This document shows positions 5,217 through 59,453 of a DNA stretch of 64,000 nucleotides, one piece after another. Under the pieces are notes generated by a model, which saw nothing but the letters and a program-made list of their open reading frames with translations, was not told where the DNA came from and made no database searches. The stretch comes from Bacteroides sp. (lineage in GTDB: Bacteria; Bacteroidota; Bacteroidia; Bacteroidales; Muribaculaceae), in assembly GCA_014802385.1 (NCBI GenBank), contig JAAVCJ010000025.1:40159-104158 (forward strand), in the 5' to 3' direction. The first letter of the stretch is position 1. The number at the start of each line of letters is the position of its first letter. A program made the translations under genes and the position numbers.

Positions 5217-5683
5217 CCCAAAGAGAACGACTGCAACGCCAGCTCGACCAGCTCAAAACCCGCCACCGCGACATGATGCGCGGTCGCCTCGTGCCATCAT
5301 CACGCGCACAATCACTGCAACGTCAGATACTCGACACTCAGGAACAAATCAAACAACTCGACCTCGATGCCGCCGAACGCCTTGCCCTCGAACGCGCACC
5401 CATCGACGAAATACTCGAGATAATAGCCATTCCGCTCCTTGCCGACGTCATCAACGACGTTGTAGCCGGCGTCGATGCAACACTACGTCGCCGCGGAGCC
5501 CAAGAGACAATCTTCAGCCTCCATACAACCCAAATCCGCAAAAGCGCTATGGCCATTGTCGACACACTCGCCGTCCGTGATCAAAACCTCCCCCGACTCC
5601 TCGACGTCGACGACACCCTCATCGACGCCATCAAAAAGAAAATTATGGCATTCATCCGACAACGCCTCAATATAACCCGATAA
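5213..5683 (+). CDS. hypothetical protein
   Basis: 156-aa ORF whose start and stop are both coupled to neighbouring genes. Confidence 0.6.
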   Translation: MTQRERLQRQLDQLKTRHRDMMRGRLVPSSRAQSLQRQILDTQEQIKQLDLDAAERLALERAPIDEILEIIAIPLLADVINDVVAGVDATLRRRGAQETIFSLHTTQIRKSAMAIVDTLAVRDQNLPRLLDVDDTLIDAIKKKIMAFIRQRLNITR

Positions 5684-5928
5684 TGGATCAACTCACCGAC
5701 ATCGAGCGCCTCGTTTACGACGCCATCAGCGAGATTCAGGACATCAAGCGAGCAGGAGGTCAGTCGCCCGACTACGCCATGCACTTCGAGATAAACAACT
5801 TCCTGCGCCCCGAGCTACCCCCTGGCTTCGAGACGTCGATACTCAAAGCCCTCAGGCTCTTGTGTCGCCGCCGTCTCATCGATTTCCACCACACCGTCAA
5901 CGGCCTCATCATGTTCGGCATAAAATAA
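5683..5928 (+). CDS. hypothetical protein (small, possibly winged-helix)
   Basis: 81-aa ORF in operon context. Confidence 0.5.
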   Translation: MDQLTDIERLVYDAISEIQDIKRAGGQSPDYAMHFEINNFLRPELPPGFETSILKALRLLCRRRLIDFHHTVNGLIMFGIK

Positions 5929-7403: not shown

Positions 7404-7932
7404 AAACTCCACCTCCGAGCTGGAACTAAGGGCGCTGCTTTATATCGCCATTTGCGAGGTATGCGACTTCTTCAACGTCGGCAAGAACATGAGCGACACC
7501 CAAATCGCTTTGACTGCCGACTTGATAATCGAAACCTATTGGTACATGAAACTCGAAGAAATCAAATATTGTTTCCGTCGGGCAATGAAGCGCGAGAAAC
7601 TGTTTGACCGAATTGACGGAAATATCATACTCGGTTGGCTCAAAGAATATGACACCGAGCGCACCGAGCAAGCCATCCGAGCCTCCGACCAACAACTCAC
7701 ACAGCAACACAACCAACCCACCGCCGATCCCCGCGCCCGCACCTATCAATCCTACATCAACTCCCTTTGGAATCTCGCCATGTATGCCGATCCCCGCGCC
7801 GTCCAGATACTGTCCGCCCTACACGACACCCCTCCCCCGCGCATGCGACTCACCACCACCCAACAACAACACCAGAACGAATTTGCATTTCAACTATTTC
7901 GCCAACAATACATCCAAAACAAGAAAAAATGA
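7366..7932 (+). CDS. hypothetical protein (start uncertain; the track ORF begins at 7231)
   Basis: ATG at 7366 (MIQAQTPTLAKIKN...) minimises overlap with the preceding gene. Its stop overlaps the next ATG. Confidence 0.5.
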   Translation: MIQAQTPTLAKIKNSTSELELRALLYIAICEVCDFFNVGKNMSDTQIALTADLIIETYWYMKLEEIKYCFRRAMKREKLFDRIDGNIILGWLKEYDTERTEQAIRASDQQLTQQHNQPTADPRARTYQSYINSLWNLAMYADPRAVQILSALHDTPPPRMRLTTTQQQHQNEFAFQLFRQQYIQNKKK

Positions 7933-8165
7933 CCTACGACATTCACCTCGATTCCGAGACCGACAACACGTCCAAGCGACACTCCAACCCCACTTATCCC
8001 TACCGATGCCCCGACCTCGGCTATCACTTCACCCCCGCCGACCACCTCATGATAAAAGTCGCCTGCCGCCGGGCCGCCAAATACATGTCCACCTACGGAC
8101 AAGCACCCGACCAACCGCTCATCGACTTAAAACATTATGCAAACTCAACACCCCAACAGCCATGA
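7929..8165 (+). CDS. hypothetical protein (78 aa)
   Basis: ATG at 7929 inside track ORF 7767-8165, coupled on both sides (ATGA at 7929-7932; stop overlaps the dUTPase start). Confidence 0.45.
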   Translation: MTYDIHLDSETDNTSKRHSNPTYPYRCPDLGYHFTPADHLMIKVACRRAAKYMSTYGQAPDQPLIDLKHYANSTPQQP

Positions 8166-8659
8166 CCGACGATATTGAATACACCGTCACCACCCCCGAC
8201 GAGTCACCCCGTCAAGACCTCACCGTCCGAATCCTATCCCTCTCCGACGACGCCGTCATACCACGCCGTGCCACACCCGGCTCAGCCGCCTACGACGTCT
8301 TCGTCCCTCGCGACACCCGCGTACACCCCGGACGCCAGGCCATACCCCTCGACCTCGCCATCGAACTCCCCCCGGGCTACGAAGCCAAGATCGAACCACG
8401 CAGCGGCTACTCATCCCAAGGCTTCAACGGCCTCATCGCCGATACCACCTACCGCCTCGACGCCGACGTCCTCGTAGGCAAAATCGACTCTGACTACCGA
8501 GGCAACATCGCCGTCATCGTCCATAGCCGCGAACCCCGCCAATTCACCATCCGCGCCCACCAACGCATCGCCCAACTCACCATCTACCGATGCCACGCCG
8601 CCACATTCAATATCGTCACCTCCCTCACCCCCAGCCAACGAGGCCACAGCGGAGACTAA
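8162..8659 (+). CDS. dut: dUTP diphosphatase (trimeric dUTPase)
   Basis: The ATG at 8162 gives 165 aa with RATPGSAAYDV, RSGYS and GKIDSDYRGNIAVIV motifs. The 351-aa track ORF is an upstream extension with no protein-like sequence. Confidence 0.85.
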   Translation: MTDDIEYTVTTPDESPRQDLTVRILSLSDDAVIPRRATPGSAAYDVFVPRDTRVHPGRQAIPLDLAIELPPGYEAKIEPRSGYSSQGFNGLIADTTYRLDADVLVGKIDSDYRGNIAVIVHSREPRQFTIRAHQRIAQLTIYRCHAATFNIVTSLTPSQRGHSGD

Positions 8660-9513: not shown

Positions 9514-10266
9514 ATGGAGAAGATAGAACTTTTTAATGATAATTACCAAAATTGGAAGTCATATCAAATCCCCAAAGCGCAGCTAATCATAGCCGATGTG
9601 CCCTATAACCTCGGAGTTAATGCTTACGCTTCTAACCCCTCATGGTACATAGGGGGTGACAATAAAAACGGCGAAAGCGAGTTGGCAGGTAAGCAATTCT
9701 TTGACACCGACAAAGACTTCCGCCCCGCCGAGTTTATGCACTTCTGCTCCAGAATGCTCATCAAAGAGCCAAAAGAAGTAGGCAAATCACCTTGCATGAT
9801 AATCTTTTGCGCTTTCGACCAGCAGATGTACTTCATCGAGCTCGGCAAGCGATACGGCTTCAACCACTACATCAACCTCGTGTTCCGTAAAAACTACTCC
9901 CCACAGGTATTGAAAGCCAACATGAAAATAGTAGGCAACTGCGAGTACGGCATACTGCTTTACCGTGACAAACTACCCAAATTCAACAACGACGGACACA
10001 TGATATTCAACTGCATCGACTATCCACGCGACACCACAACCCCAAAGATACACCCCACCCAGAAGAGCCTGCCACTCCTTGAATCACTCATCCGACTGTT
10101 CACCGATCCCGGCGATGTTGTCATCGACCCATGCGCCGGCAGCGGCACAACACTGCTCGCCGCCAAGAACCTCCACCGCCGGGCCTACGGATTTGAAATC
10201 AAAAAAGAATTTTTCACCAAAGCCCAGGGCCTCATAGCCACCTGCGCATCACCAGTATTATTCTAA
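9514..10266 (+). CDS. DNA methyltransferase, beta-class N6-adenine/N4-cytosine type
   Basis: A catalytic DPPY-like motif (IADVPYNLG) lies near the N-terminus. The AdoMet motif VIDPCAGSGTTLLAA lies near the C-terminus, which is the beta-class order. Confidence 0.85.
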   Translation: MEKIELFNDNYQNWKSYQIPKAQLIIADVPYNLGVNAYASNPSWYIGGDNKNGESELAGKQFFDTDKDFRPAEFMHFCSRMLIKEPKEVGKSPCMIIFCAFDQQMYFIELGKRYGFNHYINLVFRKNYSPQVLKANMKIVGNCEYGILLYRDKLPKFNNDGHMIFNCIDYPRDTTTPKIHPTQKSLPLLESLIRLFTDPGDVVIDPCAGSGTTLLAAKNLHRRAYGFEIKKEFFTKAQGLIATCASPVLF

Positions 10267-10280
10267 CAACCTAAACCACA

Positions 10281-10397
10281 ATGAACGAAACAAAAAACAA
10301 CTTCAACAAGAAAGTGCAGATGCACCTCGCCTGCAAAAAGGGCGACGAAAATCGCAAAGAGCTCGAGTGTATCTATTACCCCACTAAAATTAATTAA
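10281..10397 (+). CDS. very small hypothetical protein (38 aa)
   Basis: ATG at 10281, TAA at 10395-10397, immediately before the NAMPT-like start. Weak support. Confidence 0.25.
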   Translation: MNETKNNFNKKVQMHLACKKGDENRKELECIYYPTKIN

Positions 10398-10398
10398 T

Positions 10399-11898
10399 AT
10401 GAACAACGCAATTTTACTTACCGATGGCTACAAATTAGACCATCGTCGTCAGTACCCACAAGGCACTGAGTATGTTTACTCAAACTGGACTCCGCGCAGC
10501 AACGCCTACTTCCCACAGGCCACAGACGGCGCGGTAGTGTTCGGTCTTCAGTATTTTATCAAGAAGTACCTTATCGAAAAGTTCAACAAAGACTTCTTCA
10601 ACCTTCCCGAAGATGAAGCCGTGGCAAACTTCAAACGCCGCATAGACACATTCCTCGGCGAGAACCAGGTTGGCACCGAACACATCCGCGCACTCCACCG
10701 GCTCGGCTATCTGCCCGTCCGCATCAAGTCGCTGCCCGAAGGCTCAATATGCCCCATCCGCGTGCCAATGCACACCGTCATCAACACCCTACCCGAGTTC
10801 TTTTGGCTGACAAACTTCCTTGAAACACTTATGTCATGCGAATTGTGGCTGCCTACCACATCTGCAACCACCGCACGAGTCTACCGTAAGGAACTCGAAC
10901 GACATGCCGAGAAAACAGGATTCGCCCCCGACGTTATGCTCGGCTTCCTTTGCCACGACTTCTCAATGCGCGGCATGGCCGGACTCGAAGCCTCAATCAC
11001 AAGCGGCATGGGACACCTCTCATCTTTTGTCGGTAGCGAGACCTTGCCCGCTATCGATGCCGTTGAGCAATACTACAACGCCGATGCCGAAAAAGAACTT
11101 ATCGCCATGACAGTCCCGGCTTCAGAACACAGCGTTATGTGCGCCGGAGGCAAGGATGATGAATTTGAGACATTCAAGCGCTTCATCACCCAACTTTATC
11201 CCAAAGGTTTTGTAAGCATAGTGTCCGACACATGGGACTTGTGGCAAGTGATAACTGACTTTGTACCGCGTCTCAAAAATGAAATCCTCGCCCGCGACGG
11301 TCGCCTTGTAATCCGTCCCGACAGCGGCGACCCTGTACACATCATTTGCGGCTATACTCATGACGACTTCGAGAACTTCCAGGAAGAAGCCATGACAAGT
11401 ACATCCGAGCAGAAAGGCGTTTATGAACTCCTTTGGGATATTTTCGGCGGCACTATCAACGAGAAAGGCTACAAAGTGCTTGACCCGCACATCGGCGTCA
11501 TCTATGGCGACAGCATCACCCTTGAACGCCAGAAAGAAATCTACCGCCGCCTTGAAGAAAAAGGCTTTGCCGCCACCAACCTTGTACTCGGCATCGGTTC
11601 ATACACCTATCAGTACCGCACACGCGACTCACTCGGCTTCGCCATGAAAGCCACATGGTGTCAGGTCAACGGCGAGCCCCGCGAAATATTCAAGTCACCA
11701 AAAACCGACACCGGCATGAAAAAATCGCTCAAAGGTCTTATCCGTGTTGATACGGACGAGAACGGCGTTTACTACGCCACCGATTGTGTCAGCAAAGAAC
11801 AGGAAGCCGGTGGCTGTCTTGAAACAATCTTTGAAAACGGCAAACTGGTAAAAGAAACATCACTCAAAGAAATCCGCCACCGACTATGCAAGCAATAG
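10399..11898 (+). CDS. nicotinamide phosphoribosyltransferase family protein (NAMPT/NadV-like; candidate Namat of a NARP1-type pathway)
   Basis: 499 aa. The N-terminal NAILLTDGYKLDHRRQYP, HDFSMRGM, and SDTWDLW..IRPDSGDP motifs are characteristic of NAMPT. Confidence 0.9.
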   Translation: MNNAILLTDGYKLDHRRQYPQGTEYVYSNWTPRSNAYFPQATDGAVVFGLQYFIKKYLIEKFNKDFFNLPEDEAVANFKRRIDTFLGENQVGTEHIRALHRLGYLPVRIKSLPEGSICPIRVPMHTVINTLPEFFWLTNFLETLMSCELWLPTTSATTARVYRKELERHAEKTGFAPDVMLGFLCHDFSMRGMAGLEASITSGMGHLSSFVGSETLPAIDAVEQYYNADAEKELIAMTVPASEHSVMCAGGKDDEFETFKRFITQLYPKGFVSIVSDTWDLWQVITDFVPRLKNEILARDGRLVIRPDSGDPVHIICGYTHDDFENFQEEAMTSTSEQKGVYELLWDIFGGTINEKGYKVLDPHIGVIYGDSITLERQKEIYRRLEEKGFAATNLVLGIGSYTYQYRTRDSLGFAMKATWCQVNGEPREIFKSPKTDTGMKKSLKGLIRVDTDENGVYYATDCVSKEQEAGGCLETIFENGKLVKETSLKEIRHRLCKQ

Positions 11899-12689
11899 AC
11901 CTTACCCAACCCGGCGACAACTACAAAGTGATTACTTTCCCCGATGGGGAAATCCATCTTGAACTCTCCGGGATCAACCGCAAAGAACCCATAGCCGTAA
12001 GATGTCGTATAACTAATGCGGCTGACCTTTTCATTCTAATGCAGTTGGCTGACATTATAAAGAGGCAATGCCTTGAAGTAGCAATACTGGAGATATACTA
12101 CCTCATGGGTATGCGTTGCGACAGGCTATTTGACATCAACCGACCCTTTACACTCGGCATTGTGGCAGATGTTGTCAACTCCCTTAACGCCCGCGAAGTT
12201 TGCATTTACGAGCCACACTCAGCTAAATCGTCAAGGCTGATAAAAAACAGTGCTGATATATTTATCACCACCTATTTGGCTCAAAAAAAGCCATTCGCTG
12301 AACGCCCCGAGTGGTTGTTTGTAGCGCCCGACAAAGGCGCAGCAGAGCGCTACCGCGGCACAAAGTTCGCTGTTGTTTGCGAGAAAGTAAGAGACGAGGC
12401 CACCGGCAAGTTATTGTCGTTTAAAGCAACGCCCAATGAAGAAGTGACTGGACGCGATCTGCTCGTTATCGACGACCTGTGCGACGGCGGCGGTACATTT
12501 GTCGGACTCGCGCCTAAACTTCGGGAACTTCAACCCCAAAGCCTATCTCTTCTCGTCACCCATGCCGTTCAACGCGCGGGAATTGAGAAAGTGGCTAAAG
12601 CCTACGACAAGGTGTATATAACCAGCACTTATAAAAATTGGGAAGACGAGGAACTACCCGATAATGTAGAAGTATTCTCATTCCATTAA
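11886..12689 (+). CDS. ribose-phosphate pyrophosphokinase (PRPP synthetase)-like protein, short and divergent (candidate Adps of a NARP1-type pathway)
   Basis: 267 aa with Prs-like FPDGEIHLEL, YYLMGMRCDR, APDKGAAERY and the PRPP-loop LLVIDDLCDGGGTF. It overlaps the NAMPT-like gene by 13 nt. Confidence 0.8.
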   Translation: MQAIDLTQPGDNYKVITFPDGEIHLELSGINRKEPIAVRCRITNAADLFILMQLADIIKRQCLEVAILEIYYLMGMRCDRLFDINRPFTLGIVADVVNSLNAREVCIYEPHSAKSSRLIKNSADIFITTYLAQKKPFAERPEWLFVAPDKGAAERYRGTKFAVVCEKVRDEATGKLLSFKATPNEEVTGRDLLVIDDLCDGGGTFVGLAPKLRELQPQSLSLLVTHAVQRAGIEKVAKAYDKVYITSTYKNWEDEELPDNVEVFSFH

Positions 12690-12695
12690 CCCCAC

Positions 12696-12731
12696 GCTCC
12701 ACTGCTCCGGCGGTGGAGCTAATATTTTTTT
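12696..12731 (+). terminator. intrinsic terminator after the NAMPT/Prs pair
   Basis: GCTCCAC-N10-GTGGAGC stem followed by TAATATTTTTTT. Confidence 0.7.
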
Positions 12732-12851: not shown

Positions 12852-13937
12852 ATGAATACCCCACAACAAGACCTCGCATGGTCTATCTTACCAAAGGGTG
12901 TGAGAGACGGAATGAGGTATGAATATCGTAAGACTTTGTACCATCAAGTGAGAGATGTATTAGACTACTTCTTCGGTCGCCACAATTTCACCTCAGACAC
13001 TGAGCCTGAGGAGATGCTGATGGTGGAGAGAAGCGAAATAATACAAAATTACACCAATTCTTTAGAAAGATCTAAAGAATCCAATAACCCAATAGAAACT
13101 TATTCTGAGGGATATTATGATGGCCAAACGGCAATTCTCGAAGAGCTTTTCGGCGACAAGTGCCTGCCCGACAAAGAAGAGCCTAAGCCTAAGTTCAAGT
13201 ATAATATTGGGGATTTAGTAACTTATAGGGGTAAAGTAAAGAAAGTTATTTGTAAAGAGAGGGATTGTAAGGACAATGCAATATACACTTGTAGTACGAT
13301 TAACGGACAATCACCTTTGGTTTTTAATGAAATAGACCTTGAACCCTACACCGAACAAAATAAAGACAATATGATAACAACCGAAAATGGCGATTTGCCA
13401 AACAGCAAAGAATTAGACATAAAGGTCATTAATGAAGAACCGAACCTTTGCGAACTTTTGAAGGGTTGCAAGGGAGAGGAGTTTTATAGCCTAAGTCATG
13501 GCGAAGTAATTCTTGATAATATTAGAACAAATCCTTGTAGAGGCATATCGGAATTTCTTGTCTTATATTCAAAACACTATGATAGTGGGTCGATATTTAT
13601 CAATCCAAATGGCAAAACTGTAAATTATGGAAGTATTCTTCTCTATCCCTCCCGCGCCCTCTACGAGAAATATCCGCTTGATGCCTATTCAGCATGGATG
13701 GAGTGGAAAGAGGCAAAGAAGCAAAAACGGTGGAGAGCAGAGGTAGGAGAATTTTATTGGCGTATTATTTTCGATGAAAGTTACGATAATTGTATTACAG
13801 AGTCTTGTGATGGTCGCGACACTATTGACAATGCTAACTATAAACTTGGCAACTACTTCCCTACCAAAAGAACTCGCCGCCCAAGCCGCCCAATTAGTCA
13901 AAGACGTCCTACACAACTTTCACCAAAAACATCTTGA
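12852..13937 (+). CDS. hypothetical protein (AT-rich, probably acquired cargo gene)
   Basis: 361-aa ORF whose central part is visibly AT-richer than its neighbours. The C-terminal 25 aa are Arg/Pro-rich, and an alternative frame reads more protein-like (see findings). Confidence 0.6.
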   Translation: MNTPQQDLAWSILPKGVRDGMRYEYRKTLYHQVRDVLDYFFGRHNFTSDTEPEEMLMVERSEIIQNYTNSLERSKESNNPIETYSEGYYDGQTAILEELFGDKCLPDKEEPKPKFKYNIGDLVTYRGKVKKVICKERDCKDNAIYTCSTINGQSPLVFNEIDLEPYTEQNKDNMITTENGDLPNSKELDIKVINEEPNLCELLKGCKGEEFYSLSHGEVILDNIRTNPCRGISEFLVLYSKHYDSGSIFINPNGKTVNYGSILLYPSRALYEKYPLDAYSAWMEWKEAKKQKRWRAEVGEFYWRIIFDESYDNCITESCDGRDTIDNANYKLGNYFPTKRTRRPSRPISQRRPTQLSPKTS

Positions 13938-14033: not shown

Positions 14034-14059
14034 GAGGGGAGATTCCTCAGTCTCCCCTC
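14034..14059. terminator. hairpin between convergent gene blocks (bidirectional terminator candidate)
   Basis: GAGGGGAGA-TTCCTCAG-TCTCCCCTC, a 9-bp perfect stem followed by ATCTCGTTTTCTT on the plus strand. Confidence 0.6.
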
Positions 14060-17093: not shown

Positions 17094-20000
17094 CTACATC
17101 TTCACCCAGTCACCACCGTTGTCACGCCTCATAATCCCCCCCGGCGTCACCTTCAGGCCATATCCCCCCGCCAGCATATAGCTGCCCGACTTGTCAGCCG
17201 CCAACACCACGTCACCCCACGCCGTCGAGAAACCATCTTGATAAATCGTCGTCTGCTGGCCCACACCCACCTTAGCCTCACCCTTAATCCATACAGGTTC
17301 AAGATTACCACCCCGCCACGTGCCATTCTCATCATCCGCCACCTCATCCGACTTAATCGAGAACCTCAACGAACACATCGCTATATCCCTAACCGCTATA
17401 TAGTTAATCGCCGTCGAGAACAACACCTGGTTCTTTATCACCGTACTCTTAGCCGAACATCTGAACGTCTGCAACACATTATCCGCCCCGTCAATCAGTT
17501 CAATCGTCATAACCGGCTTATCATAGATCGGCCTCAACACCACGTCATTCCCGTCAGCCGTCATAACCGTCCCATCATCAGCCACCGCGTCATCATCAAC
17601 CACATTTGGAACTGCTGTGCCTATAATAGGCAACACAACACGATAGTCACACGTCAGAGATATTGACGTACCCTCCGCCACATTCGTCAGTATTCTCACC
17701 GTCATCGGGGCGCTCGTATTAATCGAGTAACCTTTTGTCGCAGTGTTCTTGACATGCACATTTCTCAGCTCCGGGCTTACATCCACCTTCGTCGATATAC
17801 CGTTTAATATATTACCCACATCAGGCATCTTGTCATTCGAGATCAGACAACGCGTCGCCCCCTCCTGGTCATACAGATACAACCCGTGATCCGTAAACTT
17901 GATATTGTCACCGAGCTCAATCAACCCCCTCATGAAACGTATCGTGTTACCCGCCGCATAGGCCGTACCATCATGCCTTACACCAAATAAAGCCCCATTC
18001 ACAGCATCCAGTGCCGCATCAATCTGCTCCCCACCGGCCCACATCGCCAGCGTGTTATCAACTCCGCCATTGATACCCGCCATCGTCCTGTATACACCCT
18101 CGCCGTCCGTATACCCTAATCTAAGCAACGACGCCAGTATCAGACCACCGATCATCGACCCACTCTCCGCCGCCGCATTTTTAATCGATTCCTTCAGGTA
18201 ATCAATCGACGGGTCACCATCCTCCGGCGCCGCCGACCACTCCGCCACCATACAGTTACCCCTCACCAGCATCAGCTCCGTGAACTCCTGCACACGCCCA
18301 TACGAGTTCAGACGCACAAAATAATCCCCCGACGGCTGGTTCCACACAAACGTCGTACCCTCCCTCTCACCAGTGCTCTCATCCGAGATTAGCTGGTAAT
18401 TACTCCCGTCAAACAGCCACAACGTCACCCGGTCATCAGGCGCCCCGTTCAGAGCACCCACATGGTCAGCCGTGAACACTCCCGTCGATCGCCCCCTTAT
18501 TGTGTACTCCGCACCCCTCTCCATCGGTATCGCCGTCGACAGCCTCGGCACATACAGGCTCCAGTCATTACTACCCGGCCTCGCCCCCGTCACATACGTC
18601 TCTCCCGTGTTCCTCAGCAAGTTGCGCGAACCCACCACCAAGCCCCCGACAACCTCGTCAGCCACCCCCTTGGCCGCCTCGTTCACATACTCCCCGATCG
18701 TTTTATCACCCACCGTCGACAGCACATTCAGCCTCGCCTTTATATTCAGCACACCGTTTATCCACTCTATAAAGCCCCCCTCATCGCCTATATACCACCT
18801 CGGTCTGCCATTGTACATCCCCGACTGCCGCCCTACAAAGTAATACTCCACACCCTCGGCACCCACCGAGTCCAGCCCCTCGACATACCGCTCATAGCCA
18901 CCCCCCGACACATCTCTCACCTTCATATAACGGCGGTTCGCGTCCGTATAGCTGCCACGCTGCACAATCACATCCCCCGCCTCCGGCACCCCCGTCCCGT
19001 TCACACCTCCGTCCGGCCACCCCACAGGCCGCTCCGACCCGTCACGCCGCTTCGTCAGCACCACATAGTCAGCCCCCACCTCCGTCACCCTGCGCCGATA
19101 GAACTTCAGTTCAGCATTCTCAGGTGTCATACGGTTATTCCACGCCACATCTCCAACCCTGAAGAGATTAGCCACCGTCCCCTCATGCTGGTCAAAATAA
19201 CACTTATATCCCCCCGTCATCTCATCTACACGCACAATCTCCATAGCCGCCACACTCTCCACCACCATGCCCCCCTGGCCCAGCACCTGGTTCACCACAA
19301 GATTATTCACCTCCACGTCCTCACGCACCATCAGCCTGTCCGCCTCGACAACCCAGTTACCCCCCGCGTCCTTATACACACCCCAGCCCGTGCCCCCCAC
19401 CATACCGCTCCTGAAACCTATCGACGACAACAGCGACCCGAACTCCGTCGGCGAAATCGACCTGTCGGGCAACCCATCCTTTCTCAGATACAGCTTGTCA
19501 CCCACAGCCCTCACAATCTGCTCGATATTGCTTATCGACCCCACCTGCTTAGCCAGCGCCGACACCTCACCCTGCAACATAGCCACCGGGCTCGCCGACA
19601 CCTCATAACGGTCACTCAGCACAATCTCCACATCAGGATTCAACGCCGCGTCCTCCGACGTCGGCTCACGATACGTATACGTCAGCGCCGACAGGTACAG
19701 CTCCTCCGTCGCCCCGTCAATAAAACGCTTATCCGCCAGCCTCAGCGAGTCCCCCGGCCTCAGAACAAGCCCCCCCGTCCCCATCAGCTCATTCATTCTC
19801 ACACGGTCAGTCTGCACCACCCACGTCGGCCTTATATCACACTTCTGCGCGAGCACGTCCTTCTTCCACCCGTCAACACGCTCCTCTCCCCACTTCACAT
19901 ACAGATGAGGCATATCTATACCCGTCAGGAAAAAGAAATCACCCGCCTGCGCCTGCCTCATCACCGACGGCACATACACCCCCAGCGCCTCCATCTCAGC

Positions 20001-21959
20001 GTCACTCTTACCTAGCTCAATACACCACTCCGACCAATACTCATGCTCCACCCTCACACCATTCTCCACCGTCTCCCACCGGCACAGCCTCCTGTCATAC
20101 TTCGGCATCGACGCTATCACAAACTCATAGTCCTCATGCGCCAGCGCCCCGCTACCGAACACCACCTTAGCCTCATTACCCACACGGTCACCCAGTATAG
20201 GCTCCCACACACGCTTTGCATACTGCGCCTCAGTCTCCCTCTCCCCCTTCACCGACTGCCATATATTCTTAACCCATATACGCCACGTGTCACGCCACTT
20301 ATCATCAAGCGTCGCGCTGGTCAGCCTCGGGCCCTCCAGCGACAACGTCACCTTATGATCATCACCCGTGGTATTCTCAACCCTGCACGACACCATGTAC
20401 CTGTACCTGCCCGACGCTATACCCGACGCCGGCACCCTCGCGCCACCACCATCCTCAAGCACCACCGTCGTCTCCGTCACCACCACACCCTCAATCGTCG
20501 TCTCAGCCTCAGTCTCCGTCACCTTCTCGTCAATAACCCACCGCCCCTTACTGAAATCCCAATAGAAAACATACGTCTTCCCCTTGATGATTTTCGACGA
20601 CTTCACCACAATGCGCCCCTCATCAAAGTTCGCCGTCTTATCCTCCGGCACCGTAAACCATGACCCGGTCAGCTCAATAACCACACTACCGTTCGCCGGC
20701 ACCCTCTCAGTCTTAGGCACACAATTCTCAATCGCCGACAACTGCGCGTCACTCTCCGTCGCCCCCCCCACATCATCACTCATTATCGGCTCCACATCAA
20801 CCACCTCATCAACACGCCCCATCGGCTCCACCGTCACCCCTTGTATCGTCGGGTAAATATCCTCATTATTCTCCAGTCCGTTCATCAGCGGCCCATACTT
20901 CGCTATCGACGAGTCACCCTTCACCCACGGCGCGTAACCCGGCAACACCTCCACCACCTTGTCCGTCGCCACCGGCTCCACCGTTATCTCATCAGCCACA
21001 AACTCCACCGGGTCCCACCTCTCGTCCGTCAGACCCTTCCTGTAAGCCCACGGCGCGTAAGCATTAGTCTCACCCACCGGTACATACCCCTTATACTTGT
21101 CCCTGTGAGCTGTCTTCCAACCCTGTACATAACTTCTGAAAGTCGCCGGCATCAGATTCGCGAAGTATATATTCTCAAGCTCCTCCACCCAGTCCGGGTC
21201 AGCCTCAAACGTCCCGTTAGCCTCATCCTTATCCTTGAAATAGCGGTAAGGCACATTCTTCTCACCGCCACGTCCCAGCACCATATTCCCTATCTCATCA
21301 CTCTGCACCTGCCTCTCAACCCTCATCAATCCCCCCTCAAAGCCATACTCAAACACATGCCCCTGCTCCGTCGCCGGGTACCCCACCTTGATCACATACC
21401 TCTCCGGCCCCTCCACAGGCTCAATAACCCACCTCACACCATACACCTCATACAGCTTCAGCAACACATCCCACACATGCGAGTAACTAATCTCCACCAC
21501 CTCCGGCTCCGCCTTGTACACCCAGTCCCCATTCAGCTCAATCGTGATCCTGTCACCATAGTAACGCTCCAGCACCAGCCCAAGCAGCTTGCAGAAATCC
21601 CCCAGATTAAGACTCACCGACGCCACATACTTATCAGGCCACGCCACCCCGGCATCACCCGGCTGCACCGTGTAGAAGTACCACCGCTTCAGCTGATACT
21701 GCGCCCAATGCACAAACGTCAGCTCCACCACCGGGCTCCAGCTCGTATTCTCCTTGCTGCCCTGAGGCCTCCTCAGCGGCATAATATACTTGTGACCCTG
21801 AAAAACCACCTCCCAGTCACGCGCGAAAGCCTCCCTCACATCACCGTCAATCCTCACCTGCGACGTGATAGTCCACTCACCCATATCCACCATCGACACC
21901 GACGCCGAGCTCAACGTCGCCCCCTCCGGGAAATTCAACTCCTGTATATCCTTTATCAT
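17094..21959 (-). CDS. large tail fibre / host-specificity (tail tip) protein
   Basis: About 1620-aa ORF downstream of the tape measure module. The track start is GTG at 21983, but that codon lies inside the conserved GAGCC-GT-GAGCC leader motif, so the ATG at 21959 is preferred. Confidence 0.8.
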   Translation of the reverse strand: MIKDIQELNFPEGATLSSASVSMVDMGEWTITSQVRIDGDVREAFARDWEVVFQGHKYIMPLRRPQGSKENTSWSPVVELTFVHWAQYQLKRWYFYTVQPGDAGVAWPDKYVASVSLNLGDFCKLLGLVLERYYGDRITIELNGDWVYKAEPEVVEISYSHVWDVLLKLYEVYGVRWVIEPVEGPERYVIKVGYPATEQGHVFEYGFEGGLMRVERQVQSDEIGNMVLGRGGEKNVPYRYFKDKDEANGTFEADPDWVEELENIYFANLMPATFRSYVQGWKTAHRDKYKGYVPVGETNAYAPWAYRKGLTDERWDPVEFVADEITVEPVATDKVVEVLPGYAPWVKGDSSIAKYGPLMNGLENNEDIYPTIQGVTVEPMGRVDEVVDVEPIMSDDVGGATESDAQLSAIENCVPKTERVPANGSVVIELTGSWFTVPEDKTANFDEGRIVVKSSKIIKGKTYVFYWDFSKGRWVIDEKVTETEAETTIEGVVVTETTVVLEDGGGARVPASGIASGRYRYMVSCRVENTTGDDHKVTLSLEGPRLTSATLDDKWRDTWRIWVKNIWQSVKGERETEAQYAKRVWEPILGDRVGNEAKVVFGSGALAHEDYEFVIASMPKYDRRLCRWETVENGVRVEHEYWSEWCIELGKSDAEMEALGVYVPSVMRQAQAGDFFFLTGIDMPHLYVKWGEERVDGWKKDVLAQKCDIRPTWVVQTDRVRMNELMGTGGLVLRPGDSLRLADKRFIDGATEELYLSALTYTYREPTSEDAALNPDVEIVLSDRYEVSASPVAMLQGEVSALAKQVGSISNIEQIVRAVGDKLYLRKDGLPDRSISPTEFGSLLSSIGFRSGMVGGTGWGVYKDAGGNWVVEADRLMVREDVEVNNLVVNQVLGQGGMVVESVAAMEIVRVDEMTGGYKCYFDQHEGTVANLFRVGDVAWNNRMTPENAELKFYRRRVTEVGADYVVLTKRRDGSERPVGWPDGGVNGTGVPEAGDVIVQRGSYTDANRRYMKVRDVSGGGYERYVEGLDSVGAEGVEYYFVGRQSGMYNGRPRWYIGDEGGFIEWINGVLNIKARLNVLSTVGDKTIGEYVNEAAKGVADEVVGGLVVGSRNLLRNTGETYVTGARPGSNDWSLYVPRLSTAIPMERGAEYTIRGRSTGVFTADHVGALNGAPDDRVTLWLFDGSNYQLISDESTGEREGTTFVWNQPSGDYFVRLNSYGRVQEFTELMLVRGNCMVAEWSAAPEDGDPSIDYLKESIKNAAAESGSMIGGLILASLLRLGYTDGEGVYRTMAGINGGVDNTLAMWAGGEQIDAALDAVNGALFGVRHDGTAYAAGNTIRFMRGLIELGDNIKFTDHGLYLYDQEGATRCLISNDKMPDVGNILNGISTKVDVSPELRNVHVKNTATKGYSINTSAPMTVRILTNVAEGTSISLTCDYRVVLPIIGTAVPNVVDDDAVADDGTVMTADGNDVVLRPIYDKPVMTIELIDGADNVLQTFRCSAKSTVIKNQVLFSTAINYIAVRDIAMCSLRFSIKSDEVADDENGTWRGGNLEPVWIKGEAKVGVGQQTTIYQDGFSTAWGDVVLAADKSGSYMLAGGYGLKVTPGGIMRRDNGGDWVKM

Positions 21960-25497: not shown

Positions 25498-28400
25498 TCA
25501 GTCAATCGTCACATGCAGCGAATGCACCGACTGACTACCGCGAGGCCTTATCACCCTCCTCAGCTCCGCCACCGCGTTCTCAGCCGCCACCGCCGCCCTA
25601 CGGCACTCCACAACCGTGTCAGCCGTGTTTCGCTGAATAGCCATGTAGCTATCCATCGCCTGCTGCTGCCAGTCAGTCCACCCCCCCGACACTGCCCCCG
25701 ACGAGGGTAGGGCAGACACCTTACCACCCTCCATCAGCTGCCTTATCGCCGCCACGTTCACCGCCATGCCCGGCAAGTGGCTGACATAATAATTCTGAGC
25801 ATTCAGCGCCGCCGTGTTAGCATTCATCTCCTCACTCGTCGCCCCCGCCACCTCACGCTTTATACCCGTATACTCCCCGTCCGACTCACCCAACAGCGCC
25901 TTCATGTCATAGCCCCGCGCCTCAAGCGACTTCCACAACACCTCCATGCCATTGTTAGCCGCCGCCAGAGCCGAGTCCATACCCTTCATTATCGCATCAA
26001 TCGCACCCTCCACATCATTGTCGGCAAGCATCTTGTCCATATCCTGCCACATCGGAGTCAGAGCATTCTCAATCACCCTCGCCGCAGCACCCTCCACAAT
26101 CATATTCTTCACCAAGTCAGCATAGTCCTCCTTGATAGCCGTGAACGTATCACTCATCGACGCCCTCGCATCAATCCACGACTGCGCCATCTGCCGCGCG
26201 GCATCAGCCCTGCTCGACCCCGTGAAGTGAGCCGTCAGCTCAGCCTGCATATCCTTAATATTGTCAGCTGCCTCACGCGCTGCCTCCTCATACTCCTTGA
26301 TCTTATCCTTATCCGCCTTTTTCCCCTTCGACCGCTCCGCCTCAGCCTGCTTCATGTAAGCCTCCTGCTGCGCCTGGAGGTTTCTGAGCTGCTGGTCATA
26401 GTTATCGATATACTGAGCGCCGAACACATTCTCAGCCGCCTTTTCAAGTCTGCCGTAGGTGTATTCGAGTTGGTCTAACAGCTCCTTCTGACGCTCAATC
26501 TCCTTATTCGCCTTGCGGACTTTATTTCCGCTTATCCACGACCCTATCGCCGCGCCGACAGCGAGCACTCCGGCAGCAATCGCTATATACGGATTAGACT
26601 CAGCAATAGCATTAAACAATGCTTGTGCAGTCGTAACCACACCGATAGCCTTACTCATCGTCTGCAATGACCCTATTGCAGCATCAAACACTAAACCTGC
26701 CGCCGAGTCCTCCGATATACCCAGTAAATCTTTCACATCACCGAGAGTGTTTGCAAGCTGGTCAGCCGCCGATGCAACATTTTGCAAATCTTTGAAAAAC
26801 TTATTAGTCGCCTTCTTCTGCTTGTCTTGCTGTTCAGTGACCTTAGCCTCAGCCTCCTTAACCTTTTCAGCCGCCTTGGCCTTTGCTTGTTCCGCATTAG
26901 TTACAGCCTGTTCTGCATTGTTAAGCCGTAACTCAGCCGCGAGGATTTGCTCCTCGGTTGCAAGGCCATCTTTCTTCAGTAACAATAATGACGTTTCAGC
27001 ATCAAGTCGCTCCTCCTCAGCCATACTTATGTCAGCATCAAGCTTCGGGAGTTGCTCCTCATACTCAGCTTGTGCTGTGTTCAACTCAGCTCTCGCCGTT
27101 TTTAGGTCACGCAGGGCAGCCATGTAGTCGCGGACACTCTGCACCATATCGTTGCCGAAACCGCGCCCGCTTATCTGCTCGTCTATGTCCTCCATAGCCT
27201 TGACAAGCGTCTTCATATTCTCCGGCGAAAGGTCTTTATTGGTATCTATCAGCTTACGCATTTCCTCGCGCAGACGTTTGAGAGCGGCAGTCGAAGTGTT
27301 ATCAAGATTCTCAAAAATCTTGATGTAATCCTCACTCTTGGTAAACTCCTCAAAGTTCACTTTAGCCACGTCCTTGTCCTGCTTTGTACGACTTTGTGCA
27401 GCGAGACGGTCTTTCTCATCTTGCGGCAGATTGCTCTTGTAAATCTCCGCTCTGCGCTGTGTCTCGCGGTTGATTATGTCTGTACGCTGCTCCTCATAGT
27501 CCTTTGCTTTGGCAAGCTCCTTTTCCCAAGTAAGGATATTTGCGGCGGCGGTCTTTTGACCCTCCGAGACTATATTCTGTGCCGTGTCGCGGTTTTTCTC
27601 TATTATGTCGGCCTGATACTTCTCGTATATTTCTGCGAGTTTTTCATAATTGATACGCTGATTTGTTGTGTCAATAGCCGCGTCAATGTCTGCTGTTATC
27701 TGCATGTCAATACCGGCGTCGCCCGAAGTGAACGACTGCCTAATCTGCTCCACAATATTATCAAACAACCCCTCACCCGTATCACCATACACACTCATCG
27801 TCACACTCGCCGCCAAATCCACATCACCCGTCTGGCTCAGAATCTTATCATAGAACTCCCTTGCGGTCTTGGTGCGCGATATGCGGTCGGAGAGTTCTTT
27901 GAGCTTCTTGTCAACCATCTCAGTCTCATTCTTCAGCCAACGCGCGTCCATACTCTTACCCAGCGTAATCTGTGCCCTCCGCGCCACCACCGTGTTAATC
28001 TTACCCAGCGCATTCCAAATCTCCGTCTGATACCTGTTCAGCTCCTTGATCGTCTTCGGCGCGTCAAACTTCAGCCCGAACTCCCCAGCCAGCTCATTCA
28101 GATACTCCAGCTCCTGCCTGTAAGTCTTATCTATATACTCCGACGCCCTCACCGACCCCACACGCTTCTCCAGCTCCTCATACTTGTCAAGCATCGACAC
28201 CAGCGCCCGCTCCATCTCCTGCAACGTCTGCACCCTCCCGTCACCACGGCCACCGCCATTTTGCACCGCCGGCAAGCGATTCAGAAACGCCTCCAGCACA
28301 GCCGCCTCCAACTTCGCCTCCTTGATAGTCTCCTTCGTCTTCTCGATACTCTCAGGCGACACAACACCCACACCAACCCCCTTCCCATAATTCTCCACCA

Positions 28401-31227
28401 CAACATTCTCCTGTTGTATGTAAGCCTTCCTCTCCTCAAGCCACTCCTGCAACTTCTTCCTGTACGAGTCAAGATCATCACCCCCCTGCGCCAGAAACCG
28501 CTTCATCTTGTCCATATTGCCCCCCATCGCCCCAGTGATCTGCTCCAGAGCATCCCTCATTGTGTTCACAAAGCCCCCCTGCGGCACCCATTTGACATAC
28601 TCCCTCTGCAACTTTGCCGTCGCCAGCTTAGCCGACTCAATCGTCTTCGACGCCCCCTTGTCAAGCTCATCATTAACAGCATCCCAGTTAATACGCATCT
28701 GCTCCCCATCCATCATCGTCATCGTCGATATGTCAAACGTCAGCCCCTCCCTCTCAAACACCTCCTGCAAGAACTTCACATACTCCCTCACCTTTACACG
28801 CTCAACCTCTTGGTCATACTCAAACGTACCCTTCTTGGCAGTTATTGGAGCATTCTTTATATTCTCAAAAACCCTCTCATACCTGTTCGCATAGCTCAGC
28901 AAATCCGCATTAAGCGCCCTCATCGTCAGCTCCGACTCCTCATCAATCCTCGAGTAAGTTTCATGAACAGTATTATAGAGCTTCATAAAAGGAATGTAGA
29001 GATTAGACACCTTGCTTATATATGACTCATCAACGTCAAACCCCGTCACACTCTCAAGCGCCTTGGTGATAGCCTCGTCAAAACTCAGCGACGTGTCCTT
29101 CGAGAACTCCTCAAGCGCCGTCTTAATACGCTTCACATCATCAGCCGACAACTCAATCTTCTGCCACCCTTGACCCTCCTTCCTATATTGAAACTCTGCC
29201 CCCTTATTAGCATTCTCAAACTGCTTATTTATCTCCTTCAGCTTCACCCCCTGCTCCTCGATAAGCGCGTTAGCCTTATTAATCTGCAACTGCTCAGCCG
29301 CATACTCCCTTATCGCCACCGTCAACTGCTCATAATTACCCTTCATCGCCCTCAGCCTCTCTATAGTCATATCCTGCACCGGGATCATCTTACCGAACGT
29401 ATTATGCAACTCCTGCAAAGCCTCTCTCTGCTGCCGGCTCCCATCCGTCGACTCAGTTATCGTCTTCGTCAGGCGCTCAAACGTCAGTATCGACTGCTCC
29501 AGCCCCGTCCGCGCCTCCGCGTCCAGTCCCCTCAGCTTCTTCTCGAGCTCATCAGTCTTCGTCAGCACATCATACACCTTAAAACCAATCGCCGCCACCA
29601 GTGCTAACAACATCGTCAGCCAGTTGCGCGACAACGCCGTCTTCAGCTTATTCGTCGCCTTAGTCCACAGATTAGTCGACTGCGCCGCCCTACTTTCAGC
29701 AAAAGCCGCCTCAAGAGCCGCCTTTGCCGACACTCGCGAAGCTGTAGCCTGCGCCGTCCTCGCGTAAGCATTAGCTTTAATTGCATTTGAACTGTTCTGA
29801 GTCAGCGCCGCCTCCTGTTTGAGAGCAACAGCCTCCCTCTGCAAAGCCACATTATACGCATTTTGAGCCGCGGTCAACTTATTATTAGCCGCCACCCTCG
29901 CCGAGTCAATACCACCCTGCCAGGCACCCACCACCGACTTCACCTTATTAGCAGCCCAAAACGCCGCCAGAGCCGCGCCCGCCGTTCCGATGGCCGAACC
30001 AACCTCTCGCCAATTCCTCATCATCTCAGTCAGCAACTCAATCGTCCCCCTCATCGCCGCGTTGACAGTGCCGTTGTTACCGATCTGGTCATACATCACC
30101 GACGCCGCGTCACCCAGCTTAGCCCACATACCCGCCAACGTGTTACCCTGCTTCTCTTGCATATTGTAGAACATACCCCCCGCGCTCGTCATATCATCGA
30201 AAACCTCCTTGACAAGCTCAAACGATATGGCACGCTTCGACACCATATCCATCACCTGCGCCGCCGTAACCAATTCCCCGTTCATCTTCGACAACTTCGC
30301 CGCAAGTTCCTCAACGATAGGCACTCCCATCTCCGTGAACTGTCTGATCTCCGAAGCCCTCAGGTACCCCGTGGCGCGCGTCTGGCCGTAGGCAAGCACG
30401 ACGCGATCCATCGACACACCCAAGCCCACCGACACATCCGTCAGCTTCTTAGTCGTCTCAAACAACTCATCAACCCCAATCTTATACGCCGCCAGTTGCT
30501 TCGTGTACTTCGTCAAGTCAAGAATCGACACCGGCGACTTCAACGCGAAATTCTTAATCTCCGAGAACAACTGGTTAGCCCGCTGCTGATCCTGAATAAT
30601 CGCCCCCAGCGACACACGCTGCAACTCAAACTCCGCCGTAACCGACCTTACCGAAGTAAGAAACATCTTTACCTTCTGAAGACCCGCATACACCGCCAAC
30701 CGCTTCGTCAGCCTCCAAATCAAACTATCCTGAGACTGATAAGCCCTGTTCAGACCCTGCGTCGCCGCCGCCCCCCTCGCCGCCGCCCGGGCATCCCTCT
30801 CCCTCGCCGCCGCCAAGTTATACTCAGCCCTCGCCGCCCTTTGAGCCGCCAACGCTGACTGCGCCTTCGCTCGCTCCTCATTCACCCTCACACGCGACGC
30901 GTCAACGGCCCCACGAGTCGACACCCGAGAGTATTTCTGCACAGCCTCCAACGCCTTGGCAAGTGTCCTCAGCTCCCCCGCCAGCTCCTTGATCGCCCTC
31001 TTAGTCTCCGGCGTCACGGGCTCCAGCTTCAGCTCCGCCAACCGCTTCTTCACCGCATCAAGACTATCAAGTTTTGACGTGTCAAGGTTCAACTTAACAT
31101 TTATAGGGCGTTTTGCGATAAGTTTTTCTAATCTTTCCGCATACTTCTTATCCCAATCATCACCCGCGCCCTTAACCGCCGCCTCCAGATCAAACCCTAT
31201 CGGGAATATCAATTTGTCATCAGCCAT
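25498..31227 (-). CDS. tail tape measure protein
   Basis: 1909 aa and largely alpha-helical. The conserved tape-measure core reads ...LKSPVSILDLTKYTKQLAAYKIG...VGLGVSMDRVVLAYGQTRATGYLRASEIRQFTEMGVP. It lies downstream of the chaperone pair. Confidence 0.9.
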   Translation of the reverse strand: MADDKLIFPIGFDLEAAVKGAGDDWDKKYAERLEKLIAKRPINVKLNLDTSKLDSLDAVKKRLAELKLEPVTPETKRAIKELAGELRTLAKALEAVQKYSRVSTRGAVDASRVRVNEERAKAQSALAAQRAARAEYNLAAARERDARAAARGAAATQGLNRAYQSQDSLIWRLTKRLAVYAGLQKVKMFLTSVRSVTAEFELQRVSLGAIIQDQQRANQLFSEIKNFALKSPVSILDLTKYTKQLAAYKIGVDELFETTKKLTDVSVGLGVSMDRVVLAYGQTRATGYLRASEIRQFTEMGVPIVEELAAKLSKMNGELVTAAQVMDMVSKRAISFELVKEVFDDMTSAGGMFYNMQEKQGNTLAGMWAKLGDAASVMYDQIGNNGTVNAAMRGTIELLTEMMRNWREVGSAIGTAGAALAAFWAANKVKSVVGAWQGGIDSARVAANNKLTAAQNAYNVALQREAVALKQEAALTQNSSNAIKANAYARTAQATASRVSAKAALEAAFAESRAAQSTNLWTKATNKLKTALSRNWLTMLLALVAAIGFKVYDVLTKTDELEKKLRGLDAEARTGLEQSILTFERLTKTITESTDGSRQQREALQELHNTFGKMIPVQDMTIERLRAMKGNYEQLTVAIREYAAEQLQINKANALIEEQGVKLKEINKQFENANKGAEFQYRKEGQGWQKIELSADDVKRIKTALEEFSKDTSLSFDEAITKALESVTGFDVDESYISKVSNLYIPFMKLYNTVHETYSRIDEESELTMRALNADLLSYANRYERVFENIKNAPITAKKGTFEYDQEVERVKVREYVKFLQEVFEREGLTFDISTMTMMDGEQMRINWDAVNDELDKGASKTIESAKLATAKLQREYVKWVPQGGFVNTMRDALEQITGAMGGNMDKMKRFLAQGGDDLDSYRKKLQEWLEERKAYIQQENVVVENYGKGVGVGVVSPESIEKTKETIKEAKLEAAVLEAFLNRLPAVQNGGGRGDGRVQTLQEMERALVSMLDKYEELEKRVGSVRASEYIDKTYRQELEYLNELAGEFGLKFDAPKTIKELNRYQTEIWNALGKINTVVARRAQITLGKSMDARWLKNETEMVDKKLKELSDRISRTKTAREFYDKILSQTGDVDLAASVTMSVYGDTGEGLFDNIVEQIRQSFTSGDAGIDMQITADIDAAIDTTNQRINYEKLAEIYEKYQADIIEKNRDTAQNIVSEGQKTAAANILTWEKELAKAKDYEEQRTDIINRETQRRAEIYKSNLPQDEKDRLAAQSRTKQDKDVAKVNFEEFTKSEDYIKIFENLDNTSTAALKRLREEMRKLIDTNKDLSPENMKTLVKAMEDIDEQISGRGFGNDMVQSVRDYMAALRDLKTARAELNTAQAEYEEQLPKLDADISMAEEERLDAETSLLLLKKDGLATEEQILAAELRLNNAEQAVTNAEQAKAKAAEKVKEAEAKVTEQQDKQKKATNKFFKDLQNVASAADQLANTLGDVKDLLGISEDSAAGLVFDAAIGSLQTMSKAIGVVTTAQALFNAIAESNPYIAIAAGVLAVGAAIGSWISGNKVRKANKEIERQKELLDQLEYTYGRLEKAAENVFGAQYIDNYDQQLRNLQAQQEAYMKQAEAERSKGKKADKDKIKEYEEAAREAADNIKDMQAELTAHFTGSSRADAARQMAQSWIDARASMSDTFTAIKEDYADLVKNMIVEGAAARVIENALTPMWQDMDKMLADNDVEGAIDAIMKGMDSALAAANNGMEVLWKSLEARGYDMKALLGESDGEYTGIKREVAGATSEEMNANTAALNAQNYYVSHLPGMAVNVAAIRQLMEGGKVSALPSSGAVSGGWTDWQQQAMDSYMAIQRNTADTVVECRRAAVAAENAVAELRRVIRPRGSQSVHSLHVTID

Positions 31228-58979: not shown

Positions 58980-59453
58980 TTATTGTGGGGTGTTAGTGGC
59001 GGAAGATAGCATCTTTTTGTACTCCCAATATTCATAAGTTTCGCCTTTGTACTCGGCAACCAACTTATCAAGCCATTGCTGTTCGCACATAGAGCCAGTG
59101 AATACATAACAATCCCTTAATTCCTCTTTTGTGGCGTAGGCAAAATAGCAAAGGGAATCTAAAGGGAATAACTCTCTCGCTGATTTTGATAAATCACTCC
59201 ACCATTGACCTCTACATTCTTCGGTTGTTCCGTCAGTCAGTGGCAGGGTAAACTTACGACCTGCAAAAGCAGTCTTGCCAAAGGGTAGTGTCATATTATC
59301 GCGCCTATAAAAACTATGCACGCCCTCGTCTTCGCCGATGATTGTTTCTCGGTCAATCTTTGTGTACGACATTTGTATAGGGCGGTTTAAGACGTATTGT
59401 GTATGCTCGCCACTCTTAACTATCGCTAATATTTTTATCTTTTCTTTATTCAT
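58980..59453 (-). CDS. hypothetical protein
   Basis: 157-aa ORF. Confidence 0.55.
   Translation of the reverse strand: MNKEKIKILAIVKSGEHTQYVLNRPIQMSYTKIDRETIIGEDEGVHSFYRRDNMTLPFGKTAFAGRKFTLPLTDGTTEECRGQWWSDLSKSARELFPLDSLCYFAYATKEELRDCYVFTGSMCEQQWLDKLVAEYKGETYEYWEYKKMLSSATNTPQ

Follow-up and report, generated by a model that had tools for sequence, protein, structure and literature searches.

A predicted NARP1 gene pair in the early region of a Bacteroides prophage

The 64,000-nucleotide stretch of Bacteroides sp. DNA analyzed here (assembly GCA_014802385.1, contig JAAVCJ010000025.1, positions 40,159 to 104,158; hereafter the window) contains two overlapping genes, the first encoding a protein of the nicotinamide phosphoribosyltransferase (Nampt) family and the second a protein of the phosphoribosyl pyrophosphate synthetase (Prs) family. 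Sequence comparisons make it highly probable that the pair is a core cassette of NAD+ reconstitution pathway 1 (NARP1), situated in the early/replication region of a Bacteroides prophage. A first inspection of the DNA letters (the original prediction) had proposed a module of this type, and every sequence-level check that it put forward came out in favor of that proposal. Two open reading frames (ORFs) of 499 and 267 aa, overlapping by 13 nt, were located as predicted on the plus strand (Table 1), together with all of the quoted motifs: TDGYKLDHRRQYP, HDFSMRGM, and IRPDSGDP for the Nampt family and FPDGEIHLEL, YYLMGMRCDR, and DDLCDGGGTF for the Prs family. Both family assignments are far past chance. 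The 499-aa product matches NCBIfam PRK09198 with 566 bits (E=5.6e-170) and phrog_448 with E=1e-201, and the 267-aa product matches phrog_619, the phage family annotated as "ribose-phosphate pyrophosphokinase," with E=1.6e-60.

The biochemistry of the Adps and Namat families has been described (Osterman et al. 2024), as have the crystal structures of SPbetaL1 Namat and the basis of Namat selectivity (PMC12774641). In the mechanism proposed here, the 267-aa protein, as an ADP-ribose diphosphokinase (Adps), would use ATP to pyrophosphorylate ADP-ribose (ADPR) on its ribose, giving ADPR-PP. The 499-aa protein, as a nicotinamide ADP-ribose transferase (Namat), would then use nicotinamide to displace the pyrophosphate of ADPR-PP, yielding NAD+ and inorganic pyrophosphate. 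Because Namat would form NAD+ directly, a nicotinamide mononucleotide (NMN) adenylyltransferase (NMNAT) would not be needed. During lytic growth, the pair would restore NAD+ that had been split to ADPR and nicotinamide by NAD+-cleaving defenses such as Thoeris, DSR1/2, SIR2-HerA, SEFIR, and similar systems. We infer these enzyme activities, the timing of expression, and the counter-defense phenotype in Bacteroides from homology.

The assignment of the 267-aa protein to Adps is supported by a tree, by competing profiles, and by discriminating residues. The panel for the tree combined Namat-linked Adps proteins from 18 phages and 3 bacteria and actinobacterial cellular Prs, all from Table S1 of Osterman et al., with the Prs of E. 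coli and core sequences from four solved Prs, two of them archaeal; the archaeal Prs were taken from solved-structure cores via PDB alignments. In a neighbor-joining tree of 40 sequences (265 columns, Kimura distances, 200 bootstraps), all cellular Prs split from the remaining sequences in 198/200 replicates, and the window protein was placed within the Adps clade. There it falls into a Bacteroidota-phage subclade (200/200) together with DAC15, cr126_1, and metagenomic relatives, and this subclade is sister to a Firmicutes-phage group that contains SPbetaL1. A hidden Markov model of Adps, built without any Bacteroidota sequence, scored the window protein at 198.8 bits versus 48.1 bits for the corresponding Prs model, and 12/12 leave-one-out controls were classified correctly. 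The protein also remains below every NCBIfam cut-off for cellular Prs (68 bits for TIGR01251, where the cut-off is 113). The phylogenetic and profile comparisons called for in the original prediction thus place the Prs-like protein with Adps and not with cellular Prs. The Adps clade was delimited by its split from prokaryotic Prs, and 97% of its members have a Namat homolog no more than 10 genes away (Osterman et al. 2024). In the window the two genes overlap, and in four metagenomic Adps relatives Namat lies directly upstream in 4/4 cases, with an overlap of approximately 10–13 nt in 3/4.

Ordinary salvage would employ enzymes of the same superfamilies, with Prs and NadV producing phosphoribosyl pyrophosphate (PRPP) and then NMN, and host NadD or NadR completing NAD+. 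The family membership of both proteins agrees with such a route, as does the presence of all Prs-superfamily catalytic residues: 12/12 superfamily-conserved residues are retained, among them the counterparts of E. coli H131, K194, R196, D220, and D221, with K167 corresponding to K194. However, of five columns that distinguish Adps from Prs, 4/5 show the Adps state in the window protein and 0/5 the Prs state. One of these columns lies in the loop that reads DTGGT in cellular Prs, which holds the 5-phosphate of ribose-5-phosphate, and which reads DGGGT in the window protein. The position of the protein outside the cellular Prs clade and the 151-bit advantage of the Adps profile likewise speak against salvage, and the adenine clamp motif of the partner protein, described below, has no role in PRPP use. 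Moreover, the SPbetaL1 Adps, a member of the same clade, gave no PRPP-type product (Osterman et al. 2024). Ordinary salvage is therefore considered very unlikely.

Comparison with characterized enzymes is consistent with a conserved active site. The window Adps shares 34% identity (105 bits) with the characterized SPbetaL1 Adps, 27% with Bas63 Adps, and 41% with DAC15 Adps (41–45% across DAC15 and cr126_1). In the alignment, K167 corresponds to SPbetaL1 K162, the catalytic lysine of Adps and the equivalent of B. subtilis K197 (Osterman et al. 2024). As a control, the SPbetaL1 Adps was compared with solved cellular Prs and scored 41–57 bits, the same twilight distance as the 19–55 bits of the window Adps. 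An AlphaFold2 model of the window protein (pLDDT 90.4, pTM 0.87) shows the two-domain Prs fold, and Foldseek aligned it with E. coli, human, B. subtilis, and archaeal Prs at TM scores of 0.72–0.80 and 14–21% identity. PDB searches turned up no Adps structure, so the structural match confirms a fold of the Prs type without telling Adps and Prs apart. The original prediction had noted a shortfall of about 50 aa relative to cellular Prs and had placed the divergence of the protein at the catalytic flexible loop. The length difference holds, but its location does not: an N-terminal beta-alpha unit (approximately 20 aa) and a C-terminal helix (approximately 25 aa) are absent, whereas the flexible loop, including its catalytic Lys and Arg, is retained.

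The 499-aa protein is supported as a Namat by its closest structural relatives and by its substrate-selective motifs. Its best PDB matches are 9W5X and 9W5W (566 bits, E=4e-169), the crystal structures of SPbetaL1 Namat (PMC12774641), followed by 9KE8 (462 bits), with human and Xanthomonas Nampt at approximately 220 bits. The protein shares 54.9% of its residues with SPbetaL1 Namat, 72.7% with the Namat of DAC15, and 32.5% with a T4-like Nampt. A tblastn search against 50,697 phage records gave a bimodal distribution, in which phages with Adps scored 299–768 bits (36–73% identity) and T4-like NadV phages, which we take to be NARP2-type, scored 165–203 bits (28–31%). By bit scores, identities, and these bimodal matches, the protein groups with Adps-associated Namats and not with Nmnat-associated or cellular Nampts, an assignment to clade that is score-based (bit-score gap plus motif) and not derived from a tree.

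The motif evidence centers on the helix that clamps the adenine. The clamp helix (SCH) of Namats follows the consensus GS-X-phi-X-phi-X-phi-TRD, in which X is aromatic (PMC12774641). The window protein fits this consensus, and its Y402 and Y406 align to F392 and Y396 of SPbetaL1 Namat, while the human, Xanthomonas, and T4-like Nampts read GGxLLQ at the site. The clamp loop (SCL) is Namat-like (WTPRS...) and extended, exceeding that of SPbetaL1 by 2 aa and that of Nampt by 5 aa, but its adenine-stacking residue is uncertain. At other sites where Namats and Nampts diverge (HDFSMRGM, EHSVMCA, and IYGD), the window protein shows the Namat state. The core set of SPbetaL1 Namat comprises D13, Y15, F189, R192, D215, A242, the catalytic His, R306, D308, G360-D361, G390-S391, and R399; all of these are kept in the window protein, including the GD pair, G400-S401, and R409, except that D215 is replaced by E214.

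Several observations weigh against assigning the pair to NARP1. The identity of the 267-aa protein to characterized Adps enzymes is moderate at 34% and 27%, the cellular Prs panel was small and composed of non-Bacteroidota sequences, and the tree was built by a distance method. The predicted activity of the pair is extrapolated from characterized enzymes that lie outside the Bacteroidota subclade. In Namats the clamp loop supplies an adenine-stacking Arg or a residue following Lys/Tyr (PMC12774641). At this position the R40 stacker of SPbetaL1 aligns to A36 of the window protein; the stacking residue is uncertain, with Y37, which is invariant in the subclade, and F38 as candidates. In addition, the nicotinamide-contacting Asp (D215 in SPbetaL1, motif GTDT) is a Glu (GSET) in 6/6 Bacteroidota-phage Namats and an Asp in 5/5 other sequences compared, including SPbetaL1 Namat and the human, Xanthomonas, and T4-like Nampts. 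In human NAMPT, the contacting Asp is D219. Since the exchange is fixed across the lineage, it is probably under selection. Finally, SPbetaL1 Namat keeps PRPP-dependent NMN synthesis in vitro (PMC12774641), and by analogy some classical salvage activity may persist in the window enzyme.

The same features raise the question of whether the Bacteroidota-phage Namat and Adps form a lineage-specific variant that uses another pyridine base or another ADPR-derived donor. The fixed GSET motif (none of the five other Namats and Nampts has it), the longer clamp loop with an invariant Tyr that replaces the Arg stacker and is shifted by one position, and a gene order reversed relative to Bas63 and SPbetaL1 would all be in keeping with this idea. 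However, Asp to Glu is a conservative exchange, the clamp loop varies in both length and sequence among bona fide Namats (PMC12774641), and the remaining contact residues and the clamp helix are canonical. A variant of this kind is thus judged unlikely; if it existed, its donor might be one produced by Bacteroides-specific NADase defenses, and the pair would be a functional NARP1 variant, not a plain ortholog. Under the preferred NARP1 assignment, the reversed overlapping gene order, the Asp-to-Glu exchange, and the longer clamp loop would be modest traits of the lineage.

NARP1 also has to be distinguished from NARP2, in which a Nampt (NadV) works together with a phage NMN adenylyltransferase (Nmnat, NatV), as in Vibrio phage KVP40 and T4-like phages. 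Both pathways restore NAD+ in phages by means of a Nampt-family enzyme, and approximately 20% of phage Nampt homologs belong to the second one (Osterman et al. 2024); because the window covers part of the prophage, the partner gene could in principle lie elsewhere in the element, as the original prediction had pointed out. A Pfam scan of the 86 window ORFs (E<=0.01) gave no match to CTP_transf_like, NUDIX, NadR, or PnuC, which bears out the predicted lack of an NMNAT-like ORF in the window. Neither NMNAT nor Nudix nor NadR nor PnuC occurs among the precomputed Pfam calls of the prophage flanks examined outside the window, out to host genes. These negative results leave a NARP2-type or NadR-type route unsupported. 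NARP2 furthermore requires Nmnat, uses PRPP, and has no Prs-like partner, and its T4-like Nampts are 28–33% identical to the window Namat and do not have the aromatic clamp helix. A NARP2-type pathway is largely refuted and retains a negligible probability.

Extended forms of NARP1 share the Adps–Namat core and add an enzyme: Adpp, a Macro-domain ADPR-1''-phosphate phosphatase, in NARP1-AP, or RyDEP, a RyR-domain cyclic ADPR glycosidase, in RyDEP-NARP1. No Pfam match to a Macro or RyR domain was found anywhere in the window, including the genes next to the pair. Since Adpp is absent from the window, the pair is predicted to be sensitive to aRES-type defense, which yields ADPR-1''-phosphate.

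The 13-nt overlap of the two genes suggests translational coupling, and the adps start codon is supported by conservation of the N-terminus (MQxIDLT) among 56 homologs. The pair forms the final two genes of a tightly packed plus-strand early/replication block, in which genes as far back as position 9048 are spaced by -13 to +14 nt, with a DnaD/O-like replication initiator (PHROG) upstream. Six nucleotides past the adps stop begins a hairpin (12696–12719) with a 10-bp stem and 7 GC pairs, followed by TAATATTTTTTT; it is predicted to act as a terminator that closes the plus-strand gene block. The original prediction had given the pair a terminator of its own. The hairpin and T-run are indeed present, but the pair has no recognizable promoter of its own and terminates a longer co-directional block. 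Upstream of the pair, matches in a sigma-70 scan were no more common than in shuffled sequences, and a regular expression for the Bacteroides-type promoter, whose consensus is -33 TTTG / -7 TAnnTTTG, found nothing.

Table 1. Coordinates of the gene pair and its features in the window
Feature	Position	Strand	Description
namat	10399..11898	+	499 aa, nicotinamide ADP-ribose transferase (Nampt-family)
adps	11886..12689	+	267 aa, ADP-ribose diphosphokinase (Prs-family)
Overlap of namat 3' end and adps start	11886..11898	+	13 nt, ATGCAAGCAATAG
Intrinsic-terminator-like hairpin and T-run	12696..12731	+	GCTCCACTGC-TCCG-GCGGTGGAGC; consensus match
38-aa ORF	10281..10397	+	stop 1 nt upstream of namat ATG; MNETKNNFNKKVQMHLACKKGDENRKELECIYYPTKIN
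SCH motif GSYTYQYRTRD	Namat residues 400–410, nt 11596–11628	+	fits Namat consensus
Clamp loop (SCL)	Namat residues 31–44, nt 10489–10530	+	extended
Namat key residues	D9/Y11, F188, R191, E214, A241, H244, R306, D308, R409		H244, catalytic His
Glu codon E214	11038–11040	+	also Glu in L006, L008–L011
Adps key residues	FPDGE 18–22, R77/D79, H111, D149, K167 and R169 (K167/R169 region nt 12384–12392)	+	K167, catalytic
DDLCDGGGTF	Adps residues 196–205, nt 12471–12500	+	cellular Prs: DTGGT at site

Pfam and PHROG scans of the neighboring genes revealed no accessory function. The 38-aa ORF between a DNA methylase gene and namat is independently annotated as coding in L001, a near-identical contig (19417–19533). 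A PHROG search with it gave no match and no family; it is possibly a small co-transcribed gene, and its membership in the module is uncertain. Directly 3' of the terminator-like hairpin lies a 361-aa orphan gene (12852–13937, plus strand), followed by a second terminator-like hairpin at 14034–14059. It has no Pfam or PHROG match and is, by its position beside the cassette, a candidate accessory or anti-defense gene.

The window genes belong to an integrated element. The Pfam scan identified, among the window ORFs, a 1909-aa tape-measure protein, an SPP1-type portal, RusA, a D5-type primase, a dUTPase, a PD-(D/E)XK nuclease, and several DNA methylases. Near-identical contigs run past both ends of the window. 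Their right-hand part encodes a resolvase and a tyrosine integrase before it reaches glycogen-synthase-like and purL genes of the host, and their left-hand part a cI-like helix-turn-helix protein and a MerR protein, beyond which lie TonB and cyclic-nucleotide-binding genes of the host. Because the phage genes are flanked by integrase, repressor-type, and host genes, the element is identified by its gene content as a tailed prophage, about 74 kb long and integrated in a Bacteroides chromosome. The original prediction spoke of a Bacteroidota phage; the genes are phage-borne as stated, but the carrier is a prophage and not a free phage.

Two other origins were considered for the element. The best annotated matches, cr126_1 and DAC15, pointed to a crAss-like phage, an origin that was rejected because of the 1909-aa tape-measure protein, the SPP1-type portal, and the flanking integrase and host genes. 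A protein 100% identical to the 267-aa product is publicly annotated as a "hypothetical protein" in a metagenome-assembled genome (MAG) of Bacteroides sp., on a 263-kb contig whose size raised the possibility of a jumbo phage; this was ruled out, as the contig is a bacterial chromosome fragment that carries the approximately 74-kb prophage.

Integration in the chromosome is compatible with a role in the lysogen, in which the prophage genes would serve NAD+ homeostasis of the host and not counter-defense. The AntiDefenseFinder authors report that NARP1 is enriched in non-mobile chromosomal regions and suggest housekeeping roles, and a functional bacterial NARP1 has been demonstrated (PMC12774641). 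However, the prophage around the pair has genes for tape-measure, portal, integrase, and repressor proteins, and the pair ends the replication/early block, where its strand and packing are those of lytic-cycle genes, and the same cassette is present in different phage backbones. A housekeeping function in place of the proposed counter-defense role appears extremely unlikely.

Among the relatives, the cassette is found inside the replication/recombination modules of differing temperate phages, near DnaB, RecT, YqaJ, RusA, integrase, and methylase genes. Together, these locations indicate that namat and adps move between different phage backbones as a two-gene unit. A scan of genome contigs with a single protein found one relative, in a Bacteroidales MAG, which is not enough for a picture of the distribution.

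A characterized system for comparison is NARP1 of SPbetaL1 (Adps WIT26982.1 plus Namat), in which a temperate phage carries the same two families in one operon. The likeness extends to the Namat core, the aromatic clamp helix, and the catalytic Lys of Adps, at the identities given above. The order of the genes differs, with Namat preceding Adps in the window and Adps preceding Namat in both SPbetaL1 and Bas63. The window Namat is further distinguished by Glu for D215, by two additional clamp-loop residues, and by Ala/Tyr at the R40 stacker, and its host belongs to the phylum Bacteroidota. The closest catalogued relatives are the crAss-like phages DAC15/DAC17, cr126_1, and cr85_1 (Namat 72.7%, Adps 41–45% identical), which share the Namat-first order, the GSET and clamp-helix features, and the host genus. 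In contrast to the window element, an approximately 74-kb tailed prophage with tape-measure and integrase genes, they are virulent, podovirus-like Crassvirales of approximately 100 kb. DAC15 also has a 142-aa gene between Namat and Adps, whereas the window genes overlap directly. Cellular class I/III Prs share with the window Adps the two-domain fold and the catalytic His/Lys/Arg/Asp set but differ in their N- and C-terminal elements, their DTGGT loop, their sequence (14–21% identity), their scores relative to family cut-offs, and their separate clade.

A survey of phage genomes found NARP1 in 859 of them (4.3%; Osterman et al. 2024), and AntiDefenseFinder detects it across prokaryotic genomes. 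Tables S1 and S2 of Osterman et al. list DAC15, DAC17, cr126_1, and cr85_1 as carriers of both Adps and an "Adps-associated" Namat, and for DAC15 Adps, Table S1 records a Namat no more than 10 genes away. As the pathway is already catalogued, including in Bacteroides phages, the cassette is not novel in kind, and the novelty implied in the original prediction falls away: these tables already hold Bacteroides crAss-like phages with both genes. Knowledge of the pathway itself is unchanged. The predicted cassette would extend the occurrence of NARP1 from virulent crAss-like Bacteroides phages to temperate, tailed prophages of gut Bacteroides. More generally, its recurrence as a mobile unit would imply that a genus dominant in the human gut is under real selection from NAD+-depleting immunity. 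The pair also offers a compact Bacteroidota system for tests of NARP1, for which K167A in Adps and R306A and Y402G/Y406K in Namat are predicted to be inactivating.

Further observations concern genes near the cassette in related phages. In DAC15 (contig L006), the 142-aa gene between Namat and Adps is DAC15_102 (5496–5924), which has no Pfam match and gave no accessory function in Pfam and PHROG scans. In other phages its place is taken by the Macro-domain phosphatase Adpp or by RyDEP, and it may encode an undescribed NARP1 accessory protein. In the related contig L009, a 238-aa protein with a metallo-beta-lactamase fold (10416–11132) is encoded approximately 3.6 kb downstream of the Namat–Adps pair. 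It matches the anti-Pycsar nuclease Apyc1 weakly (PF23023, E=0.003, below the cut-off) and may be a second counter-defense gene. A third contig (P0054/L010; GCA_014802555.1, JAAVCB010000078.1; 93.8 kb) carries the same cassette, with Adps 62% and Namat 91% identical to those of the window, under the NCBI label "Clavibacter sp."; because its gene content is that of a Bacteroidales phage, it is probably a mis-binned or mislabeled MAG contig.

Within the prophage, the dUTPase gene (7649–8659, plus strand) encodes 336 aa, of which the C-terminal 135 residues form the dUTPase domain; the N-terminal extension of approximately 200 aa has no recognizable family. Between approximately 17000 and 32000, GC skew reaches -0.25 to -0.46 and G+C content is 52–59%, compared to approximately 43–47% elsewhere. 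This region coincides with giant minus-strand genes, one encoding 1621 aa (17094–21959) and the other the tape-measure protein (25498–31227). The prophage encodes at least two N6/N4 DNA methylases (9514–10266 and 59450–60238), and a block at 50–62 kb contains a PAPS-reductase-domain protein together with weak radical-SAM and methyltransferase matches. By their predicted domains, the methylases and this block suggest that the prophage has additional DNA-modification or anti-restriction functions.

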